NCBI GenBank assembly: GCA_036170915.1
Contig: JAVHQC010000033.1
Location: forward strand, 1 to 64,000
Length of the DNA stretch: 64,000 nucleotides
Origin: Cyanobacteria bacterium auto_48_18
Lineage (GTDB): Bacteria; Cyanobacteriota; Vampirovibrionia; Obscuribacterales; Obscuribacteraceae
Reading direction: 5' to 3'
The position numbers and the translations under genes were made by a program. Positions 10,076 to 19,212 of this stretch are shown one piece after another (position 1 is the first letter of the stretch; the number at the start of each line of letters is the position of its first letter). Under the pieces are notes generated by a model. It saw only the letters and a list, made by a program, of their open reading frames with translations, was not told where the DNA came from and searched no databases.

Positions 10076-10612
10076 ATGATTATGGCGGATACCCTTGCAA
10101 TTTTTCTGACAGTGGTAGGCTTTTTAATTGCCCTTCCCGGGTTGTGGTTGCTCTGTCGCGGGCTTTGGCCTGAGGCTGTTACCAGTACTACCGTGGACTG
10201 CGCTGGCGGTTTGCTTAAACCTTTCCTGGTAGGCATTCCCATTGCTGCAATTGCATTTTTTGCTGCCGCTGCTACCGGTAAAGTTTTAGGGGGGTTAATT
10301 ACCCTTCTGATAGTTTGCTTGTTTGTTTTCTACGCCAGCATTGGCATTGCCGGCCTGACGACCGCTATTGGCCAACGGTTACCGTCACCGGCTGACTGTG
10401 ACCGGCCCTGGCAGGCTACCATTCGTGGCAGTGTGGTATTAGAACTTGCCTTTTTGTTGCCGATTCTAGGCTGGTTTCTAATTTTACCGGCCGCACTAAT
10501 AATTGGTTCAGGTAGCGCGTTACGCGCGTCCATTCGTGCCTTTAAAAACAGGAAGCGAAGAGCCCGGCCTCTGGATAACCCCGACTTAGGTGTTACAGCC
10601 GGAGCGGCATAA
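10076..10612 (+). CDS. Integral membrane protein, first gene of the DUF1800/DUF1501 operon
   Basis: About 4-5 hydrophobic helices; stop overlaps the next start (TAATG). Confidence 0.75.
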   Translation: MIMADTLAIFLTVVGFLIALPGLWLLCRGLWPEAVTSTTVDCAGGLLKPFLVGIPIAAIAFFAAAATGKVLGGLITLLIVCLFVFYASIGIAGLTTAIGQRLPSPADCDRPWQATIRGSVVLELAFLLPILGWFLILPAALIIGSGSALRASIRAFKNRKRRARPLDNPDLGVTAGAA

Positions 10613-12114
10613 TGGCTCTTAACCGTCGCGACTTGCTTAAAATTGCGGCGCTGACAAGCGCTTTCCCTTTGTTTGGCTGCGAGAAAGTAACCAGCGAACT
10701 GAGCAAAAAACTTGGGCAGACAATTCCTGAAAAATTTGGCATTGCCCACGATGCGGCAGTTGATAGAGATTTTCACTTACTCTCACGGGCCACCTATGGC
10801 ATCTGGCCAGGCGACCTCGATTATTTGAAAAAATGTGGTCGTGATCAGTGGCTGCAGGAGCAGTTGAGTCCAGAGAAAATTGATGATGGTGCCTGCGAAT
10901 TGAGGGCGCGTAGATTCGAGACTCTGTGGCTAGACCCTGGCACCTGTGCCGAATTTAAAAAGCCAGTCTTGCGCGATGAGCTTGTGCGGCATATGCTACT
11001 GCGGGCTGTTTATAGCAAGCGGCAGTTGCTTGAAGTGATGGTTGGTTTTTGGACCGACCATTTGAATATTGATGTTAATAAAGGCGACGCAATTTATGCT
11101 AAAGCCTTTGATGATCGCAAAGTGATTCGCCCTAATGCCCTTGGTAATTTTAGAAATCTAATAGCTGCATCAGCAACATCTGCGGCAATGTTGATTTACT
11201 TAGATGGTAAAGAAAATCGACGCGCGTCACCGGATGCGATACCAAACGAAAATTATGCCCGCGAATTACTCGAATTGCATACCATGGGTGTCGACGGCGG
11301 TTACAAACAAAAAGATGTTTATGAAGTTGCTCGCTGCCTGACGGGCTGGCGCATTCATTCGCCATGGCAACGCGGCCAAGTCTACTTTGATAATGATCAA
11401 CACGATAACGGCACCAAGCTGGTTTTAGGTCACAGAATTGCTGCTGGCCAGGGTGAGCGTGATCTAGACAGCGTGCTTGATATAGTGTGCAAACATCCAT
11501 CAACCGCAAGACATATTGCCACTAAAATGGTGACCCATTTTGTCAGCGATAAGCCGCCACCAGAAATGGTGCAAAAAGTAGCCACAGCTTTCAGTTCGAC
11601 TGGTGGCGATATTCGTTCAATGTTGCTAGCTATTTTTTCTAGCCCTCAGTTTGACCAATATCCGGCGGCGAAAATAAAAAGGCCTTTTCATTACATTGCC
11701 AGTGCTCTTCGCAGTCTAGCTGCTGATACCTATGCTCACTCATCGCTGACTGAATACCTATCTAGAATGGGTCATGGGCCGTTTGAATTTCCTACACCGG
11801 ACGGCTATCCTGATCAGTCTTCTTATTGGGTGTCGACTTTGCTCTGGCGTTGGAACTTTGCTCTCAGTCTTTGTGCCGGTAACATTGCCGAAGTTTCTGT
11901 TTCGCTGCCGCAGTTAGCCCAGGCAATGGGTGCAGAAATGGGCCAGGGAAAGGGTTTGCATGCGGAAAAAATGTTCGCTCATTTTGTCGGCCGCAAGCCT
12001 AACGAGCATGAGCTTGAGGCTTTCCACGGTCACTTAAGTATCAAGCCAGGCGAGAGTCGTGACGCCGAGCTTGTTGGCCTGATGCTTTCATCACCTGCTT
12101 TTCAGAGGTGTTGA
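10612..12114 (+). CDS. DUF1800 family protein, Tat lipoprotein
   Basis: LNRRDLLK...LFGC; FWTDH, MLIYLD, PNENYARELLELHTMG, ARCLTGW, PTPDGY. Confidence 0.92.
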   Translation: MALNRRDLLKIAALTSAFPLFGCEKVTSELSKKLGQTIPEKFGIAHDAAVDRDFHLLSRATYGIWPGDLDYLKKCGRDQWLQEQLSPEKIDDGACELRARRFETLWLDPGTCAEFKKPVLRDELVRHMLLRAVYSKRQLLEVMVGFWTDHLNIDVNKGDAIYAKAFDDRKVIRPNALGNFRNLIAASATSAAMLIYLDGKENRRASPDAIPNENYARELLELHTMGVDGGYKQKDVYEVARCLTGWRIHSPWQRGQVYFDNDQHDNGTKLVLGHRIAAGQGERDLDSVLDIVCKHPSTARHIATKMVTHFVSDKPPPEMVQKVATAFSSTGGDIRSMLLAIFSSPQFDQYPAAKIKRPFHYIASALRSLAADTYAHSSLTEYLSRMGHGPFEFPTPDGYPDQSSYWVSTLLWRWNFALSLCAGNIAEVSVSLPQLAQAMGAEMGQGKGLHAEKMFAHFVGRKPNEHELEAFHGHLSIKPGESRDAELVGLMLSSPAFQRC

Positions 12115-12115
12115 C

Positions 12116-13372
12116 GTGGAACCTCGAAATCAGTCTGCATTTCAGTCACAATCACATAGTCAGTCACGCAGATCGTTTTTGCGCAGGCTCGCCTTTGCCG
12201 ATGATGCAACAGCAACTGGTGCTAATCGATCGTTAGTTTGCATTTTCTTACGTGGTGGTGCCGACACACTCAATATGCTGGTGCCTTACGGTATGGACGA
12301 ATACTATAAGTTGCGACCAACTATTGCTATTAAGGCTCCGGGCAAATCGTCTGAATCTGCCATTAAGCTCAATGACCTTTATGGTTTCCACCCTAAAATG
12401 GCACCACTCTTGCCAATTTTTGCCGACGGGCGGTTGGGAATGGTTCAGGGGGTCGGCTCTGATAACGAATCAGGCTCGCACTTCAGCGCCCAGGATCAAA
12501 TGGAACATGGTGAATCATGCAGGCACAGCTTGGGTGGTGGTTGGTTGGGAAGGCATCTGGCCAGTCGCACTCAATCAAAGCAGACGCCACTATCAGCAGT
12601 GGCAATCGGAACAGCTTTACCTGAGGTTCTACGCGGCGCACCGGCGGCTAGCGTAATTAGATCGTTAGACGACATCAAGTTAAGCGCGCCGGCCGGTGAT
12701 ACACAATTAGTAGCAGCTGCACTGGCAAAGCTTTATCAGGCTGAAACGGCTTTACTGGCTGAGCCAGGCAAGACTACCCTTGACTTGCTTAAGCGTGTGC
12801 AAAAATTGCAACAAAAGACATATAGCCCCGCCAATGGTGCGATTTATCCAGACAACACCTTTGGTCATGGGCTTAAAGAGCTGGCTCGATTACTGAAAGG
12901 CAATGTCGGGCTTGAAATAAGCTGCCTCGATTTGAACGGCTGGGACACTCATTTCTTTCAAGGTGGTGCCGCCGGCTTGCAGGCTGACAGCATTGAACAG
13001 CTGGCTCTAGGACTAGCCGCTTTTGACAAAGACCTGGGCAGCACTCGTAACCGCGTAACAACAATTGTGATCACGGAATTTGGGCGACGTACCTATGAAA
13101 ACAGCTCTCTTGGCACCGATCATGGGCGTGGCTTTACGGCCTTTGCTATAGGCGAGCGCATTGCTGGTGGTCAGATTCACGGCGCCCTGCCACTGCTCAG
13201 TAAGGGTCAAGAGGTTGACCTCTTCGGACCCGCCGGGCTGCCAATAAGTTTCGATTATCGTTCAGTTTTGAGCGAAATATTGGTACGAGCACTTGATAAT
13301 CGAAGAATCGACTGTGTATTTCCTGGATTTAATTCGCAAGAAGTGGGTCTGGTTAAGCGGTCGATCGTTTGA
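12116..13372 (+). CDS. DUF1501 family protein
   Basis: FLRGGADTLN, SHF, GGWLGR, GWDTH, TEFGR, GTDHG. Confidence 0.92.
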   Translation: MEPRNQSAFQSQSHSQSRRSFLRRLAFADDATATGANRSLVCIFLRGGADTLNMLVPYGMDEYYKLRPTIAIKAPGKSSESAIKLNDLYGFHPKMAPLLPIFADGRLGMVQGVGSDNESGSHFSAQDQMEHGESCRHSLGGGWLGRHLASRTQSKQTPLSAVAIGTALPEVLRGAPAASVIRSLDDIKLSAPAGDTQLVAAALAKLYQAETALLAEPGKTTLDLLKRVQKLQQKTYSPANGAIYPDNTFGHGLKELARLLKGNVGLEISCLDLNGWDTHFFQGGAAGLQADSIEQLALGLAAFDKDLGSTRNRVTTIVITEFGRRTYENSSLGTDHGRGFTAFAIGERIAGGQIHGALPLLSKGQEVDLFGPAGLPISFDYRSVLSEILVRALDNRRIDCVFPGFNSQEVGLVKRSIV

Positions 13373-13392: not shown

Positions 13393-14847
13393 ATGAAAGC
13401 GACGAAACTCAAAATTTTTGGCCTCAGCTCTGTTTTAGCGCTTACCTCAACACCGGCATTTGCCTTGCCGAGAATGGGCGTTCTGTCGCTCACCGGTGAG
13501 CAGGCCGACGGTCAAGGTGACCGTACATCTCGATTTCTGAGGGCTGCCAACTCGAGTAGGGCCACTGTTACTGACGCTGAAAAACAGCGCCTAATAACTC
13601 TTTTGCTTTATTTGGGTTTGACCACCAATAAGCCACCCATCGAATCTACTCAAGACCATATTCTTATTGAGAAGATCGGGCAGCAGGTCAAAGCGAGCCA
13701 GACGGTCAAACTTTCAGACTTGAGCGAGCTTTATCATCTGCGAATGAAAGAGAAGCACTATGTTGGTGCCTTGAGCTGTCTGTCATTTATCACTTACATT
13801 CGCACTTTGAATTCGGCCGACCACGGTGTTTCTACAATCGACTCGGGCGAGATAGCTAAAACCAAGCTTCTGGCTGGTCATGAGTTGCTTGAGATGGCTA
13901 AAGCTGAGACTAAGACATTTGATGTCAACGCGCTGCCGCATCTTAAGCTGGCAAAATCGCTCTTACAGGCTTCAGGTGACGTTAAACTGATCAGTCATAT
14001 TGATAAAGACATTGCGTCTCTGCAAGAAAGTGGGCAGCGGCCTCGAGGCTACAGCGGATTTTTAATGGTGGCCGATTTAGTTGAAAGCACTATTCAGTAT
14101 AGCCCGGCATATTTTGCCAAGAATATTAAAGAGGGCGACCGCATTATTTCGGTTGATGGTGTCTCAACTTCTGGTCTTTCGTCAGAACGCATGCGCAGAT
14201 TGTTGGACGGCACAGAGTCTTCAACAGCAAAGATTGTTTTAGAGCGCAACGGCCATCGCATCACCACCACATTTAAACGTGGAACGCCTCTGCCTGACAA
14301 ATTGCCCGATGACTTAAGTGCGCGTGAGTATTTGCAGTTAGCCAGTCAGTTGCGTGAGGTTTGTCGTTTTGAGGAAGGTCGTTTAGCGCTGCAGAAGGCA
14401 CAGGCTCTAGATGGCGATGGCGAGATTGCTTCTTTAGCAAAAAAAATGTTGACTGCTAGATTTCCGAAGCAAGAACCATCGAAGCAAGCCGTCAAATTAT
14501 ACAGTGCGGGCTACTGGCTCAATCAAGACAATCGTCCTGAAGCAGAACGTATTCTCAAGCAGTGCATCGCCGCCTGGCCAGAATTTGAATTGCCTTATCG
14601 CCAACTTGCCATGGTTTATCGCAATAGTGGCCGCTTATCTGAATCGCAAAATATGCTTGAAAAACTCTTGAAACTTAACCCTGACTACGCCAGAGCCTGG
14701 TGTGATCTTTCTCAGTTGAAACAAGAGAAAACCGATTACAGTGGTGCAGTCGCCGATGCGAAGCACGCTATGGAGCTGGACCCTGATGATGCCATCATCG
14801 CCAAGTGGTGGCAGCAGCTAACTAGCGAAAAGCCCAAGAAACAGTAA
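13393..14847 (+). CDS. Exported PDZ + TPR protein
   Basis: Signal peptide ending AFA, SPAY...IKEGDRIISVDG PDZ motif, C-terminal TPRs. Confidence 0.8.
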   Translation: MKATKLKIFGLSSVLALTSTPAFALPRMGVLSLTGEQADGQGDRTSRFLRAANSSRATVTDAEKQRLITLLLYLGLTTNKPPIESTQDHILIEKIGQQVKASQTVKLSDLSELYHLRMKEKHYVGALSCLSFITYIRTLNSADHGVSTIDSGEIAKTKLLAGHELLEMAKAETKTFDVNALPHLKLAKSLLQASGDVKLISHIDKDIASLQESGQRPRGYSGFLMVADLVESTIQYSPAYFAKNIKEGDRIISVDGVSTSGLSSERMRRLLDGTESSTAKIVLERNGHRITTTFKRGTPLPDKLPDDLSAREYLQLASQLREVCRFEEGRLALQKAQALDGDGEIASLAKKMLTARFPKQEPSKQAVKLYSAGYWLNQDNRPEAERILKQCIAAWPEFELPYRQLAMVYRNSGRLSESQNMLEKLLKLNPDYARAWCDLSQLKQEKTDYSGAVADAKHAMELDPDDAIIAKWWQQLTSEKPKKQ

Positions 14848-14851
14848 TCGA

Positions 14852-15460
14852 TTATTTGCTTTGCGGCAGACTGAGTAACTTATCTGCATGCGGCATTTTG
14901 TCCCATGCCATCAGGAAATTTTCGATAGTGGTGCCGTTCTCTCTAAGAAATTTGCCGGCTTCTTGCCCCACTTTTTCACCATAAACACGGTGAGAATAAA
15001 TGATTGCCAATGCATTGCCATCAACAATGACAAATCTAGAAAAAACTACTTCAACAAATTTAGGGTCGCCCAGTATGCAAACTGCTAAGTGCTCAGCCAG
15101 TGTAGTGGCTGTTTTTGGTTTGGAATCAGTGCGAATAATTTTGCCGTGGGCTTGATAATTACTGAGCACGCGATTGGCAAAGTCAGAAAGTTTTTCGCCT
15201 GTATTTGTATTGGGCACCACGTTAATGGTAACCATGTCTTGCCATTTTTCTAAATCAGTTTGGCCTTCGGGAGTAAATTCGTTTTGATTCGCTTTTGACC
15301 AGCGGTGAAAGTACTCTTTGCCATTGAAAGTGAATTGCAATTTTGAAGACTCTGTTGCCGTGTGGGATTGGGTGTCGGTTGGTGCCGACATGGCCGGAGT
15401 TGCGGCTGAAGTGGTCAAGGCCAGGATAGAAACTAATATTAGTTTGTACATATTGATCAC
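14852..15460 (-). CDS. Exported hypothetical protein
   Basis: 202-aa ORF with signal peptide. Confidence 0.7.
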   Translation of the reverse strand: MINMYKLILVSILALTTSAATPAMSAPTDTQSHTATESSKLQFTFNGKEYFHRWSKANQNEFTPEGQTDLEKWQDMVTINVVPNTNTGEKLSDFANRVLSNYQAHGKIIRTDSKPKTATTLAEHLAVCILGDPKFVEVVFSRFVIVDGNALAIIYSHRVYGEKVGQEAGKFLRENGTTIENFLMAWDKMPHADKLLSLPQSK

Positions 15461-15545
15461 CAGCAGCTATTAAGTATGGAAATGGTACCACCTATTATTG
15501 GGGTTTTTTAGGCTACGTTTGCTTGGATACTTTTTGACCTCGCTA

Positions 15546-15581
15546 AATCGCAGAGAAATTTTTGAATATTTCTCTGCGATT
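15546..15581. terminator. 14-bp inverted repeat downstream of the tRNA array; possible terminator or processing stem
   Basis: AATCGCAGAGAAAT-N8-ATTTCTCTGCGATT; U-tract is weak. Confidence 0.55.
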
Positions 15582-15651
15582 CGTCATATCGGCGATAGCA
15601 AATAATTTAGACCTCCATCCTCCGCATTGTTGTCTCTCTATTCCTAAATAA

Positions 15652-15727
15652 TGGTGCCATCGACTGGTATCGATCCAGTTTCTCGCCGTCTTCAGCGGCA
15701 CGTGTTGACCTCAATCACTACAATGGC
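15652..15727 (-). tRNA. trnF: tRNA-Phe(GAA), CCA encoded
   Basis: Acceptor GCCATTG/CGATGGC, anticodon arm TGCCG-CTGAAGA-CGGCG, T-arm ACTGG-ATCGATA-CCAGT, A73-CCA. Confidence 0.88.
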
Positions 15728-15730
15728 ATA

Positions 15731-15810
15731 CGGAGAAAGTTGGAATCGAACCAACAACCCTTTCGGGCAACTGTTTAGCAAACAGCTTCCTAACCTTTCG
15801 GATTTTCTCC
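15731..15810 (-). tRNA. trnS: tRNA-Ser(GCT), no CCA encoded
   Basis: GGAGAAA/TTTCTCC, GCTGT-TTGCTAA-ACAGT, variable arm CCC-GAAA-GGG, GTTGG-TTCGATT-CCAAC, G73. Confidence 0.88.
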
Positions 15811-15811
15811 A

Positions 15812-15886
15812 TGGCGCGAGAAGAACGAATCGAACGCTCAGTCACTGATTTGGAGTCAGTTGGTTTACCAATTAACCGATTCTCGC
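15812..15886 (-). tRNA. trnW: tRNA-Trp(CCA), CCA encoded
   Basis: GCGAGAA/TTCTCGC, ACTGA-CTCCAAA-TCAGT, GAGCG-TTCGATT-CGTTC, G73-CCA. Confidence 0.92.
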
Positions 15887-15887
15887 A

Positions 15888-15964
15888 TGGTCCGGGATCT
15901 CAGACTCGAACTGAGAAAATACCGCTTCTAAGGCGGGCGGATTTACCAATTTTCCTAATCCCGG
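15888..15964 (-). tRNA. trnL: tRNA-Leu(TAG) with short variable loop, CCA encoded
   Basis: CCGGGAT/ATCCCGG, CCCGC-CTTAGAA-GCGGT, 5-nt variable loop ATTTT, CTCAG-TTCGAGT-CTGAG, A73-CCA. Confidence 0.88.
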
Positions 15965-15965
15965 T

Positions 15966-16041
15966 TGGAGCGCACTAGCCGACTTGCACGGCTGCATTAC
16001 TGGTTTGCAATCAGCTGGATTACTGTCTTTCCTAAGTGCGC
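15966..16041 (-). tRNA. trnC: tRNA-Cys(GCA), CCA encoded
   Basis: GCGCACT/AGTGCGC, GCTGA-TTGCAAA-CCAGT, AGCCG-TGCAAGT-CGGCT, U73-CCA. Confidence 0.85.
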
Positions 16042-16044
16042 ATT

Positions 16045-16120
16045 TGGGGTGGCTAGTGGGATTCGCGCCCACGTTTTCGATATCACAAACCGACGTCCTA
16101 GACTGCTGGACGATAGCCAC
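16045..16120 (-). tRNA. trnH: tRNA-His(GTG), CCA encoded, no encoded G-1
   Basis: GTGGCTA/TAGCCAC, TCGGT-TTGTGAT-ATCGA, GTGGG-CGCGAAT-CCCAC, C73-CCA. Confidence 0.88.
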
Positions 16121-16124
16121 AATT

Positions 16125-16196
16125 CTGAGTTGCTTGGACTCGAACCAAGATTCTCGGCTTCAAAGGCCGGTGTCCTGCCAATTAGACGACGACTCA
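16125..16196 (-). tRNA. trnQ: tRNA-Gln(TTG), no CCA encoded
   Basis: TGAGTCG/CAACTCA (one mismatch), CCGGC-CTTTGAA-GCCGA, CTTGG-TTCGAGT-CCAAG, G73. Confidence 0.88.
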
Positions 16197-16203
16197 ATAA
16201 AAA

Positions 16204-16288
16204 CGGAGATGGCATGGACTCGAACCTGCAACGGATTTTACCCGCGTTCGTTTTCAAAACGAATTCCTTTCCAATTCGGATCATCTCC
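16204..16288 (-). tRNA. trnS: tRNA-Ser(TGA), no CCA encoded
   Basis: GGAGATG/CATCTCC, TTCGT-TTTGAAA-ACGAA, long variable arm, T-stem with a bulged A, G73. Confidence 0.85.
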
Positions 16289-16292
16289 AAAG

Positions 16293-16365
16293 CTGCGCTA
16301 CCTGGGCTCGAACCTGAGACCACTCGTGTAACAGACGAATGCTCTATCAACTGAGCCATAGCGCA
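16293..16365 (-). tRNA. trnN: tRNA-Asn(GTT), no CCA encoded
   Basis: TGCGCTA/TAGCGCA, GCTC/GAGC D-stem, TTCGT-CTGTTAC-ACGAG, TTCGAGC T-loop, G73. Confidence 0.9.
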
Positions 16366-16384
16366 ATAAAGCGCGCATAAAAAT

Positions 16385-16457
16385 TCGGGAATGAAGGACT
16401 CGAACCTTCCGCTTCCTGTACCCAAAACAGGCCGTCTACCCCATGGCTTAATTCCCG
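16385..16457 (-). tRNA. trnP: tRNA-Pro(TGG), no CCA encoded
   Basis: CGGGAAT/ATTCCCG, CCTGT-TTTGGGT-ACAGG, GAAGG-TTCGAGT-CCTTC, A73; weak D-stem. Confidence 0.88.
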
Positions 16458-16480
16458 AGAAAATTTTCTCGAACGAATTA
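16449..16480 (-). promoter_or_regulatory. Hairpin joining the leader stop codon to the tRNA-Pro 5' end; contains the 16-bp palindrome CGAGAAAATTTTCTCG
   Basis: Minus strand TAATTC-GT-TCGAGAA-AATT-TTCTCGG-GAATTA. Confidence 0.6.
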
Positions 16481-16624
16481 GTTACGCGGGTGTGACGGGT
16501 TGGAGGAGTTAAATACAACATTGGAAAGATCCTTGCAATTCAGTAGAGCAGTGCCATGACGCAGCGAATTCAGCCAGCTAAACTGCTGACTGTTGCTGAG
16601 GCAATGCTGTAGTGAACGGATCAT
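16478..16624 (-). CDS. Putative 48-aa leader peptide of the tRNA operon: MIRSLQHCLSNSQQFSWLNSLRHGTALLNCKDLSNVVFNSSNPSHPRN
   Basis: AAGGTG SD 9 nt before ATG; lies between the promoter and the first tRNA; below the ORF-track length cutoff; composition matches the array tRNAs. Confidence 0.7.
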   Translation of the reverse strand: MIRSLQHCLSNSQQFSWLNSLRHGTALLNCKDLSNVVFNSSNPSHPRN

Positions 16625-16660
16625 TTCTGAAAACACCTTTTGGGGCGAGGACGTTTTTTC

Positions 16661-16688
16661 AATATAGCACGTGTTTTGAAAAGTGCAA
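16661..16688 (-). promoter_or_regulatory. Sigma70-like promoter of the leader-tRNA operon
   Basis: TTGCAC-N16-TATATT with extended -10 TGn. Confidence 0.65.
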
Positions 16689-16732
16689 ACAATTCTTCTC
16701 GAATGATTGCAACGCTGGTGTAAAATGCATAC

Positions 16733-17356
16733 ATGGATAAAGGTAAAATAGTAATTCTCAATGGCGCTAGCAGTGCGGGCAAGACCAGCTTAGCGAAAGC
16801 AATACAGCGACAGTTCACCGATACTTATTTGCTCATGGGAATTGATATGTTCTGGATGACCATGCCAGAAAATCAATTGGATCTGACCACAGTCGATGCC
16901 AGCTTTTATACATGGGTAGAAGAAGTATTCGACGACAAACCCTTTCTGCGTATTGTTCCCGGTCCAATTCTCGATCAAATCATGATTGCCAGATATCATG
17001 CCATTGCTGTTTATCTCAATGCCGGCTTCAACGTTATCGCTGATGACGTAACCTGGTCTAAGCTCTGGCTACTTGAAGGGTTGAAGGCGCTGGCGCCTTT
17101 CGAATCTTATTTTGTTGGTGTTTTCGCTGATGATCGCGTTCTCTCTCATCGTGAGATATTGCGTGGCGACAGGCTAACCGGCTGGGCGCGCGGCTCGCAA
17201 AAATGGGTGCATGAGTATCTTACTTATGACATAACTTTAGATTCATCAGTGATCGGTAGCCAGGAACTAGCACTAAAGGTGGTGGCAGCCGTCGAGGGTG
17301 ATTTTACACCCAAGGCGGCTGCTACAATGCGTCAGCTATTTGAAATTAGCAGTTAG
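16733..17356 (+). CDS. Chloramphenicol phosphotransferase-like P-loop kinase (CPT family)
   Basis: IVILNGASSAGKTS, GIDMF, GFNVIADDV, RE..RGDR..GWA..Q..VH...YDITLDS. Confidence 0.88.
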   Translation: MDKGKIVILNGASSAGKTSLAKAIQRQFTDTYLLMGIDMFWMTMPENQLDLTTVDASFYTWVEEVFDDKPFLRIVPGPILDQIMIARYHAIAVYLNAGFNVIADDVTWSKLWLLEGLKALAPFESYFVGVFADDRVLSHREILRGDRLTGWARGSQKWVHEYLTYDITLDSSVIGSQELALKVVAAVEGDFTPKAAATMRQLFEISS

Positions 17357-17368
17357 CTAATGGCCCAA

Positions 17369-18454
17369 TTATTTCGTCATGTAATTGCGGTGCACCCAGC
17401 CACCCGCAGCTGCGGCATCTTGTGTTTCGAAGAGAACTGTTTTTCTAGTTTCTTGCATCACTAATTTACTTTTGCCACCAGTTGCTTTTGCTTGAATCTT
17501 TGCGGTTTTTGCATCATCAATGCATTCTTGGATAGCAGAAGGTTTCGGAACAACATATTTCTTGCCGACTTCGCTTTCTGTCAGCGCTTCAGTGGCAGAC
17601 GCGCTTATCAATTTGGGCCACATCTTTTTAAAGAGCGCATTGCTGCCGTATACATCAACACTGTTTACCTTGCCGTTAATAGCAAATGCATATCCAACTA
17701 CGTCACTTTTTTTGTCAGTAATACTTTGCAAATCACGAACATATTTCTGCGATGCTTCTTTTACTTTTCCATTTTCAAGCGTTAACTGTAAACTGCTGGG
17801 CGATGGACATGCCGCGCTTTGCGCTTGCGAAACGTGAGCTTTTGCCCGGCCAGCTGCATTGACCTTTTGCACCACATCCCACACTTCTTGCTGATTACCT
17901 GAATATTTCGCCGCCATCTTCAAAGATTTGCTTGCTAGTTGATAGTTAGACCCTTTAAATTTGCTATCGTCTTCGCTGCCGCGTTTGCTCCAGCGATCAT
18001 GTTCAACACAGAATGATTTAATCGGCAGCATGCCTGATTTTGGTGGCACAATCATGTCGTACTGCATTGTGCGATCTTGCCGTCCACCTTTGACGATGTC
18101 ACCAGATTGAATAAAGACTGCAGCCGTGCCAGTATTTTGAATAGCAAGCTCATTGACGTTGCCTGTTTCTTTAACCACAACTTGCTTCTTATCTAAAGCT
18201 TCTTGCAATGTAAGAAAGTTTTGGAACTTTGAAGTGTCTTTGCCATGAATCAGGTAAACAGAAAGATTGCCGCTGGTAAACGGCCCGCTAATTTTGTTTT
18301 GAGGAGTGACCAGGTGAGCAGTTGACGGCCCATGCACTAGATTGGGTAGGTTTTGCGCCAGCGCAGGACTTATGCCAAAGCCGGCGCAGGATAAGCCCAA
18401 GGTGAGCACTAAGAATTTTCGTTTAATTTGTGATCTGCAATTGAGTGGGTTCAT
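17369..18454 (-). CDS. ARPP-1/DUF6569-like protein with signal peptide
   Basis: GNLSVYLI, FLTLQEAL, VNELAIQN, GDIVKGGRQDR, FCVEHDRW, QQEVW; start chosen at ATG 18454 (GGAG SD). Confidence 0.75.
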   Translation of the reverse strand: MNPLNCRSQIKRKFLVLTLGLSCAGFGISPALAQNLPNLVHGPSTAHLVTPQNKISGPFTSGNLSVYLIHGKDTSKFQNFLTLQEALDKKQVVVKETGNVNELAIQNTGTAAVFIQSGDIVKGGRQDRTMQYDMIVPPKSGMLPIKSFCVEHDRWSKRGSEDDSKFKGSNYQLASKSLKMAAKYSGNQQEVWDVVQKVNAAGRAKAHVSQAQSAACPSPSSLQLTLENGKVKEASQKYVRDLQSITDKKSDVVGYAFAINGKVNSVDVYGSNALFKKMWPKLISASATEALTESEVGKKYVVPKPSAIQECIDDAKTAKIQAKATGGKSKLVMQETRKTVLFETQDAAAAGGWVHRNYMTK

Positions 18455-18627
18455 GTTTACTCCAGCTGTTGTTGCCGCACTCACGCAATAGCCGTGGTGC
18501 AGTGTAAGTGGATCTTTTGCCAACTGAAACTCCTCAAACAGCATAGGCGCAATGGTCGAGTTAACGCTCCAGGGTTTTCCCTGATCCGTTATAATTTTTA
18601 TGCTGCAAACTCGAGACTGCTGAACGA

Positions 18628-19212
18628 ATGCAAACTGAAAAACTTCCAAGAGCGCGGGCCGAGAAAGACGAGTATTCTCGCAGTGACGACATGAGGGCAG
18701 TTGACCTGCCGCCCGCTGAGCCCTTTCGCTCGTATGCATTGCAGCTAAAAGATGCTCTGGTAGCGGAAGATCGCAAAGCTGTCCTTGTTGCAAGTCGATT
18801 GATCATTTATGCCTTGAGCGACTTTTATCAGGTCAAACGCCCTAGTGTGAGAATTCTCAGTGTGAGGCCCCAAGAAACAGAAGGCGAATGGATCTTCCAG
18901 ACATTTGGTGATTACAATCCAGAGACTCTTTTGATTCGCCTCTTCATGAAGACTGCTGTGCAAAAGAAAACCTCGTCTTATGGCACGTTCTTGAGCACTC
19001 TGGTGCACGAATTTTGTCACCACCTAGATGTGGTATCACTGGAGCTGCCGAACACTTTTCACACCAGAGGATTTTTCGAGCGTGTGGCAGTGCTTTACCA
19101 TCACATACAAAATACTCCTGTCAAAGAAATTGTATGGCAGAAATTGTCTGATGGCACATATGGTGTCAACTGGGCCAAGACTATGGCACGTTCAAGTACG
19201 GCTTCAAATTAG
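18628..19212 (+). CDS. Zincin-like (SprT-like) metallopeptidase domain protein
   Basis: TLVHEFCHHLD...HTRGF. Confidence 0.75.
   Translation: MQTEKLPRARAEKDEYSRSDDMRAVDLPPAEPFRSYALQLKDALVAEDRKAVLVASRLIIYALSDFYQVKRPSVRILSVRPQETEGEWIFQTFGDYNPETLLIRLFMKTAVQKKTSSYGTFLSTLVHEFCHHLDVVSLELPNTFHTRGFFERVAVLYHHIQNTPVKEIVWQKLSDGTYGVNWAKTMARSSTASN

Follow-up and report, generated by a model that had tools for sequence, protein, structure and literature searches.

A conserved leader reading frame that mirrors its tRNA array and probably lets ribosomes gauge tRNA supply in the Obscuribacteraceae

The window analysed here, the first 64,000 nt of a contig of Cyanobacteria bacterium auto_48_18 (genome G000; assembly of 4.9 Mb, 86% complete), carries on its minus strand an array of ten tRNA genes headed by a small open reading frame (ORF), referred to below as the leader. 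Three quarters of the leader residues are amino acids carried by the array tRNAs, homologous leaders stand beside related arrays in the family Obscuribacteraceae, and the content of the leaders co-varies with that of their arrays. The order to which this family belongs, the Obscuribacterales, comprises non-photosynthetic relatives of cyanobacteria. The leader probably lets ribosomes gauge tRNA supply. The promoter, the Shine-Dalgarno (SD) site AAGGTG, the ORF and the ten tRNAs, in their order, had all been proposed in the original prediction from the sequence alone and were verified at the following positions:

16689-16661, minus strand: promoter found by consensus scan, with the -35 element TTTGCA (16689-16684), a 17-nt spacer and an extended -10 element TG-TATATT ending at 16661
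16654-16625, minus strand: predicted 5' untranslated region (UTR) of about 30 nt, counted from the putative transcription start and holding the SD-like AAGGTG
16639-16634, minus strand: SD-like AAGGTG, 9 nt ahead of the ATG at 16624
16624-16478, minus strand: leader ORF MIRSLQHCLSNSQQFSWLNSLRHGTALLNCKDLSNVVFNSSNPSHPRN, 48 codons followed by TAA (16480-16478)
16513-16481, minus strand: ORF tail (codons 38-48), unstructured and C-rich, with array amino acids at 10 of 11 residues
15652-16458, minus strand: array of ten tRNA genes, 807 nt
16384-16458, minus strand: tRNA-Pro(UGG)
16292-16365, minus strand: tRNA-Asn
16204-16288, minus strand: tRNA-Ser(UGA), 34.7 bits with Rfam (gathering score 29), called by ARAGORN at a lowered threshold only
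16124-16197, minus strand: tRNA-Gln
16045-16120, minus strand: tRNA-His
15966-16041, minus strand: tRNA-Cys
15888-15964, minus strand: tRNA-Leu(UAG)
15812-15886, minus strand: tRNA-Trp
15730-15811, minus strand: tRNA-Ser(GCU)
15652-15727, minus strand: tRNA-Phe

The gap between the leader stop codon and tRNA-Pro is 19 nt. At default settings ARAGORN called nine of the ten array tRNAs, and Ser(UGA) was confirmed through Rfam.

Array amino acids account for 36 of the 48 leader residues (S9 L7 N7 Q3 H3 C2 F2 P2 W1) and for every residue from position 4 to 21, all seven Leu codons are CTN, and 31 of the 48 codons are readable by array anticodons under strict wobble rules, in full agreement with the counts first reported. 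With the start codon excluded, the fraction of residues in the set was 0.766, compared to 0.525±0.064 in 20,000 mononucleotide shuffles (as high in 2e-4 of them), and the strict-readable fraction was 0.66 compared to 0.34±0.07, a value reached in none of the 20,000 shuffles. The assembly holds 11,885 ORFs of 40-60 codons, of which seven attained the set fraction of the leader and only one, presumably the leader itself, its strict-readable fraction. The tail of the leader ORF is C-rich and G-poor (C 43, G 27) and is the part that varies most between genera. The Q-H-C-L run, which had been matched to the gene order Gln-His-Cys-Leu, does follow this order in G000; relatives read QHQS, and the match was taken as coincidence.

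Homologous leaders were searched for with a six-frame hidden Markov model (HMM) over 104 genomes of the family, followed by inspection. The search returned 30 loci, and 26 genomes from seven genera possessed a homologous ORF beside a tRNA array, which confirmed the expectation that an upstream ORF and an SD-like site would be conserved ahead of related arrays. The four false matches (L044, L047, L048 and L050) were discarded as they had no leader-like ORF or no tRNA alongside. In all 13 loci of the same genus (g1) the frame was open over exactly 48 codons, with an aligned start, an aligned TAA and no indels; the start was ATG in G000 and G009 and GTG in the other 11, and the two clades of this genus differed at 46 of 141 ORF positions. 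Across the family, leaders were 39-59 codons long and shared their N-terminus (VNRSLQHQS..SQFSWL), with C-terminal tails that could not be aligned. The start codon was GTG in 17 and ATG in 3 of 20 homologous leaders, each of which had a purine run containing AGG or GGA 7-13 nt ahead of the start; a separate ORF in the second array of G000 (see below) starts with ATG. The gap from stop codon to next tRNA was 7-26 nt in 7 of 10 lineages and only 7 nt in the same-genus relatives, while in G093 and G094 the ORF lies within the array, straight after tRNA-Gly. In genus g21, 250-440 nt separate the leader from the first called tRNA, and the sequence after the leader resembles a decayed 5' end of a tRNA-Pro.

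Outside the family, the leader was not found in 400 other genomes of the phylum, where three weak matches (L052-L054) had no nearby tRNA. When 185,579 species genomes were scanned for an exact pattern, only 18 loci emerged, and the same kind of scan in metagenomes yielded 13, nine of them real leaders, all belonging to two types already found in family genomes; the other four (L094, L095, L097 and L101) lacked a tRNA downstream and seem to have matched by chance. A search of a plasmid collection gave nothing beyond four short tRNA-like matches.

The co-variation of leader and array content was quantified on ten representative leaders (G000, G005, G024, G027, G021, G034, G122, G092, G094 and G093), with arrays taken from ARAGORN; an Rfam search of 19 loci added no tRNAs to the ARAGORN calls and failed to pick up the weak Ser(UGA). 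On average, a fraction of 0.545 of the leader codons specified an amino acid of their own array, compared to 0.426±0.024 when the arrays were permuted among leaders, and 0.435 compared to 0.309±0.023 under strict wobble (as high in 0 of 200,000 permutations in both cases). When restricted to the seven arrays of the Pro/Gln/His type, the exact permutation test remained significant (P = 0.0004). Eighteen amino acids have a tRNA gene in some of the arrays but not in others, and every one of them was on average more frequent in the leaders when its tRNA was present, as for Asp (0.089 vs 0.022), Tyr (0.063 vs 0.011), Lys (0.074 vs 0.026) and Thr (0.107 vs 0.040), the increase being slight for Phe and Ser. 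As leaders and arrays are inherited together, genome pairs were also compared: five non-overlapping pairs gave the predicted direction in 23 of 30 contrasts (p = 0.0026) and the four closest pairs in 14 of 19 (p = 0.032). The covariation that the original prediction had proposed to test was found by permutation, per amino acid and in paired contrasts. Array content varies within genera, and individual leaders illustrate the pattern:

G024: array Pro Ile His Cys Leu Asp Tyr; leader with D5 I4 Y2
G021: array Gln Leu Leu Leu Tyr; leader with L8 Y4, including 5 TTR codons
G092: array Ala Thr Leu Trp Ser; leader with T7
G094: array Ala Lys Lys Arg Val Asn Ser Ile; leader with A7 K4 R5 N6
Same-genus relatives of G000 without a Cys gene: leader without a Cys codon (two in G000)

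Codon choice differed between two of the leaders in line with their arrays: TTR made up 5 of 8 Leu codons in G021, whose array encodes Leu-UAA and Leu-CAA, and 0 of 7 in G000, which has Leu-UAG only. The matches were concentrated in codons 2-21 (own array 0.61, other arrays 0.47) and in the tail (0.60 and 0.42, respectively), with a smaller difference in the middle of the leader (0.42 and 0.35).

The leader RNA is also predicted to form a long hairpin, referred to as the rod, with these elements:

16627-16524, minus strand: rod hairpin from the start codon to about codon 34, pairing GAAATGATCC of the start-codon region with GGATCTTTC
16591-16572, minus strand: apical hairpin AGTCAGC-AGTTTA-GCTGGCT, codons 12-18 (AGCCAAT-TTA-ATTGGCT in relatives)

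In minimum-free-energy (MFE) folds of 12 representatives, the start region was paired with codons ~31-36 in every case (z -1.0 to -5.4), giving rods of ~105-130 nt with a hairpin cap at codons 12-18, and RNAalifold recovered both the base helix and the cap. For 17 specified pairs of the start-codon helix and the apical hairpin, 86.2% of alignment cells were paired, compared to 18.8-41.9% when the pairs were slid along the alignment, and none of 500 shuffles was as high; the structure was derived from the same sequences that served in these controls, which therefore favour it. Eight pairs had changed on both sides in a compensatory manner. Within the apical hairpin, alignment columns 63-69 hold AU in 12 sequences and GC in 6, while the base helix reads ATCGTGATC / GATCACGAT in G005, ACCGTGA / TCACGGT in G092 and GTTGTGAACCGT / ACGGTCACAAC in G027. 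ATG stands opposite CAT and GTG opposite CAC. The folds and alignments thus point to a conserved rod hairpin whose base would bury the start codon. A U-rich stretch after the rod was rejected as a terminator, since it holds only ~4-7 U in 12 nt as judged by eye and is too weak.

Several features bear on translation of the leader. Positions 2 and 3 of the start codon were invariant in 19 of 19 sequences, and the base paired to its G varied (C in 13, U in 5). The frame stayed open over 39-59 codons in ten lineages whose tails cannot be aligned; past codon 20 the corresponding 303 codons contained 6 and 18 stops in the other two frames, which is only a rough guide as the ORF span defines frame 0. 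In two well-sampled clades, the 5' arm and tail together had 24 synonymous variants out of 50 and the 3' arm 4 out of 27 (Fisher p = 0.003). Taken together, these sequence features argue that the leader is a real, conserved and array-mirroring element that is probably translated.

In the whole G000 genome ARAGORN identified 59 tRNA genes along with a single tmRNA. For nine of the ten array tRNAs, a same-anticodon gene is dispersed elsewhere in the assembly, and the arrays are therefore supernumerary; the earlier description of the array as a backup set holds for these nine, and no second Ser(UGA) gene was found in this 86% complete assembly. A second array of nine genes (Gly, Arg, Lys, Val, Asn, Met, Ile, Leu-CAA and Tyr; locus L074) lies 148 kb away on the same contig (C33:164122-165603). 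The array tRNA-Leu(UAG) and tRNA-Ser(GCU) are 77 and 82 nt long, respectively, compared to 85 and 92 nt for their dispersed copies, and this shortening by 8-10 nt suggests reduced variable arms.

The covariation and the conservation of promoter, SD-like site, RTG start, open frame and rod are shown here. On balance, these sequence data make it somewhat probable that a translated, structured leader heads a supernumerary tRNA operon and reports the supply of the charged tRNAs cognate to its array. How this could work is sketched as follows. The start site would be accessible only during RNA synthesis, until the 3' arm of the rod is transcribed, so that about one ribosome would be loaded per transcript, and the transit time of this ribosome over the leader would be the readout of cognate charged tRNA supply. 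A slow or stalled ribosome would hold the rod open and occupy the leader, raising the yield of array tRNAs per transcript; a fast one would depart, let the rod close and block re-initiation, and output would drop. The result would be a homeostatic loop acting on up to nine amino acids simultaneously. The step affected could be transcript fate (processing or stability of the precursor), which is considered because neither a terminator nor Rho was found, or a weak termination that depends on the hairpin and takes place in the U-rich stretch following the rod; this is a low-confidence guess. In its general form, the proposal is that supernumerary tRNA operons are governed by an unrecognised class of cis-sensor, a codon-mirroring ORF read once, co-transcriptionally, by a single ribosome and then closed by the rod, with neither terminator nor Rho; we put this forward tentatively, as possible rather than probable.

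The closest competing explanation is that the tRNA precursor begins with a structured leader RNA that is not translated, with a rod acting on processing, stability or the polymerase, and with the frame and its composition as by-products. The rod is indeed the best-conserved feature and carries the compensatory changes, conservation is found at the nucleotide level, equally in frames 0 and +1 and with variability flat across codon positions, and helix membership could account for the conservation of the start codon. This explanation is nonetheless unlikely, as it leaves four observations without a cause: the amino acids of a leader follow the identity of its array tRNAs, the start is RTG throughout while its partner base varies, an SD-like run stands at the proper distance in 20 of 20 leaders, and the frame remains open through tails that cannot be aligned, stopping just ahead of a tRNA. 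The same covariation data would fit a translated ORF without any regulatory role, produced while array tRNAs dominate the pool and whose codons have drifted toward them. The lack of a switch structure agrees with this, as do the direct repeats in the promoters, which suggest that initiation is controlled by a DNA-binding protein, as described for Anabaena in the available text of PMC8421152. Yet the peptide is unconserved outside the parts constrained by RNA structure, leaving no obvious product to optimise, a 48-codon frame places a negligible demand on the tRNA pool, and a start codon buried in a hairpin would be odd for a product that must be made, so that mere adaptation of the ORF seems quite improbable.

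A leader-peptide attenuator of the classical trp/his/thr type, or a Rho-dependent one of the tnaC/toiL type, would account for a short ORF enriched in cognate codons immediately upstream of the genes it controls, and the tail of the ORF is C-rich and G-poor. Between ORF and tRNA-Pro there is, however, no terminator-like site, and same-genus relatives have only 7 nt there; neither a conserved stop-region hairpin nor an alternative pairing was detected, and the Rho RNA-binding domain was not found in six of six genomes. Both types of control are unlikely in view of these results, and as an explanation of the locus they stand largely refuted. As for a chance ORF of chance composition, a 48-codon open frame is not rare and the promoter scan did not exceed shuffles, but the composition in G000, the conservation in 26 genomes and the leader-array covariation refute it, leaving it practically no weight.

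Other results weigh against a supply-reporting leader. No terminator-like site was present at 16458-16624 on the minus strand, the lineages shared no hairpin in the stop-codon region (z-scores mostly near 0), and when the 5' arm was blocked in the folding of eight leaders, no alternative helix formed consistently in its place. The Rho RNA-binding domain PF07497 was not found in any of the six genomes checked (G000, 86% complete; G003, G005, G013, G024 and G093, 93-98% complete, one of them a single contig at 97%), in a search that was positive in 9 of 14 control genomes. Variable sites were flat by codon position within clades ([7,9,9] and [13,13,18]) and between them ([16,12,18]), and amino-acid identity was no higher in frame 0 (27/49) than in frame +1 (26/48); the coding signature is hence weak, and both results argue that the peptide sequence itself is not under selection. 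An unselected peptide would fit a leader whose codons outweigh its product, and it also gives room to the RNA-only explanation. Leader and array are co-inherited, so that few independent events lie behind the covariation statistics, and of 19 replacements between the two g1 clades, 13 preserved the amino-acid set, a proportion short of significance (p = 0.12). Some relatives break the match: 8 codons each for Asn and Ser persist in G009 despite the loss of its Asn, Ser(UGA) and Ser(GCU) genes, and 6 Asn codons persist in G002, whose array has no Asn gene; G103 uses 4 TTR codons with Leu(UAG) as the sole Leu tRNA of its array, G094 uses 4 CGN codons with Arg(UCU) as the sole Arg tRNA, and the own-array fractions of G122 and G024 are poor (0.27 and 0.36, respectively). 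In the second array of G000, the shared promoter type feeds tRNA-Gly directly with no leader between them, and a third leader-like ORF in that array fails to mirror its tRNAs. Of the multiplexed sensor first proposed, the translated, array-mirroring leader is supported; no attenuator structure and, in the six genomes checked, no Rho were found, and the codon-array match fails in some relatives.

Among known leader-peptide attenuators, that of thr reads Thr and Ile, and that of ilv reads Ile, Val and Leu. The leader described here resembles these and the trp, his, leu and pheA attenuators in that a short ORF with an SD-like site immediately precedes the controlled genes, and in the enrichment of this ORF in codons tied to the regulated supply, for more than one amino acid as in thr and ilv. 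It differs in that the genes controlled would be tRNA genes and not biosynthetic enzymes and that nine amino acids are concerned and not one to three; the ORF is also longer (39-59 codons), no terminator/antiterminator pair was found, and the main structure buries the start codon of the ORF itself. T-boxes bind uncharged tRNA directly, without translation. The leader would share with them a cis-acting reading of tRNA status, in contrast to a T-box through translation, and a T-box riboswitch was rejected for want of a match to an Rfam covariance model: at E≤1, the scan of 14500-17500 returned the tRNAs and three unrelated sub-threshold matches, with no T-box and no leader family. Antibiotic-sensing leader peptides such as ermCL and the cat/cmlA leaders are short upstream ORFs that sense ribosome stalling, and the toiL leader reportedly works through Rho. 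In the available text on toiL, the upstream ORF of E. coli topAI-yjhQ, this short ORF serves as a broad sensor that responds to ribosomes stalled at any of several positions (PMC12121999). Unlike the present leader, toiL, ermCL and the cat/cmlA leaders control protein genes, and their codon content mirrors no tRNA set.

The only studied supernumerary array, the L-array (trn operon) of Anabaena/Nostoc sp. PCC 7120, is described in the accessible part of its report as promoter-controlled, with direct repeats in the promoter, and as silent until translation is impaired; L-arrays there include up to 43 genes (PMC8421152). The Obscuribacteraceae array is likewise a supernumerary array in the cyanobacterial phylum, and its promoters too hold direct repeats. 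It forms a tight cluster duplicating a housekeeping set (10 genes, 807 nt), shorter than the arrays stressed in the available text of PMC8421152. In Anabaena, the ~70 nt from promoter to first tRNA hold only a 4-codon ORF, and the terms 'leader peptide' and 'attenuat' are absent from that text (PMC8421152); the Anabaena delta-plasmid array was rejected as a comparable case because it has no comparable leader. A literature search, in which most subscription journals were beyond reach, found no published account of a leader mirroring a tRNA array. The leader would be a variant of leader-ORF sensing and, for tRNA genes, a form of control not described so far.

How individual tRNA levels are set in bacteria is poorly understood. 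If the leader acts as proposed, it would provide direct feedback from ribosome speed to tRNA supply, carry the principle of the leader peptide beyond amino-acid synthesis to the decoding machinery, covering nine amino acids where one to three had been known, and explain spare tRNA sets that stay silent until housekeeping tRNAs run short, as under starvation, ribosome-targeting antibiotics or anticodon nucleases. As no Rho and no obvious terminator were found, a new output mechanism may exist. Natural variants in the family, with differing arrays and with ATG or GTG starts and their matching partners, make the idea directly testable.

The promoter at 16689-16661 was the single promoter-like site in 15000-17200, compared to a shuffle mean of 2.8, and the scan is weak evidence by itself. 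The promoter is kept in the 13 same-genus loci and recognisable in further genera, and the block 16689-16651 (39 nt) has a 92% identical copy ahead of the second array (G000:C33:164079-164117); judged from these alignments, it is a conserved promoter of the sigma-70 type. Direct repeats occur in tandem near the -35 element of array promoters, as two copies of TTTGCAC in the second array of G000, of GTGGTGCAA in G027 and of TTGCGCA in G024. Such repeats (window region 16670-16700, L074 at ~1570-1600, L056 and L055) may be binding sites of a regulator. In genus g21 and G094, palindromic motifs of the type CACTACATGCAGTG lie just upstream of tRNA-Gln (L061, L058, L063, L064 and L066) and resemble the Anabaena array promoter repeats TGTAGTAT / ATGTAGTG.

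The second array (G000:C33:164079-165603) contains two additional small ORFs preceded by SD sites, one after tRNA-Gly and one before tRNA-Ile. Both terminate in ..STRA with the stop codon within a hairpin loop, and both are kept in G011 (L020); the first is rich in Thr, Arg and Val. At L074:1890-1965 and in the Ala-to-Arg gap of L020, directly past the Thr-rich ORF, there is a conserved sequence resembling a tRNA; its anticodon loop is of the Thr(UGU) type, its T-arm is aberrant, and it is not among the ARAGORN calls.

Two further repeat elements flank the genes of the first array:

16471-16456, minus strand: 16-nt palindrome CGAGAAAATTTTCTCG, located after the leader stop codon and reaching into the first bases of tRNA-Pro
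15578-15549, minus strand: inverted repeat CGCAGAGAAAT...ATTTCTCTGCG, ~70 nt past the last tRNA

The palindrome is restricted to G000 and G009 and is not followed by a T-run. Copies of the inverted repeat with ~90% identity occur in G006 and on at least four other contigs of G000 (C8, C20, C21 and C36). It has the look of a REP-like or terminator element and may mark where the operon ends.

The genes around the array vary across genomes, with promoter, leader and array moving as one unit, and the immediate neighbours are common only to G000 and its closest relative, G009. Divergent from the array promoter lies a chloramphenicol-phosphotransferase-like gene (16733-17356, plus strand; PF07931, E 6e-44), which was dropped as a functional partner because it is shared with G009 only and is probably incidental. 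Beside it, a gene at 17369-18793 (minus strand) encodes an ARPP-1 domain protein, and the neighbourhood also includes a DUF1800/DUF1501 gene pair (10612-13372, plus strand) and sulfatase genes.

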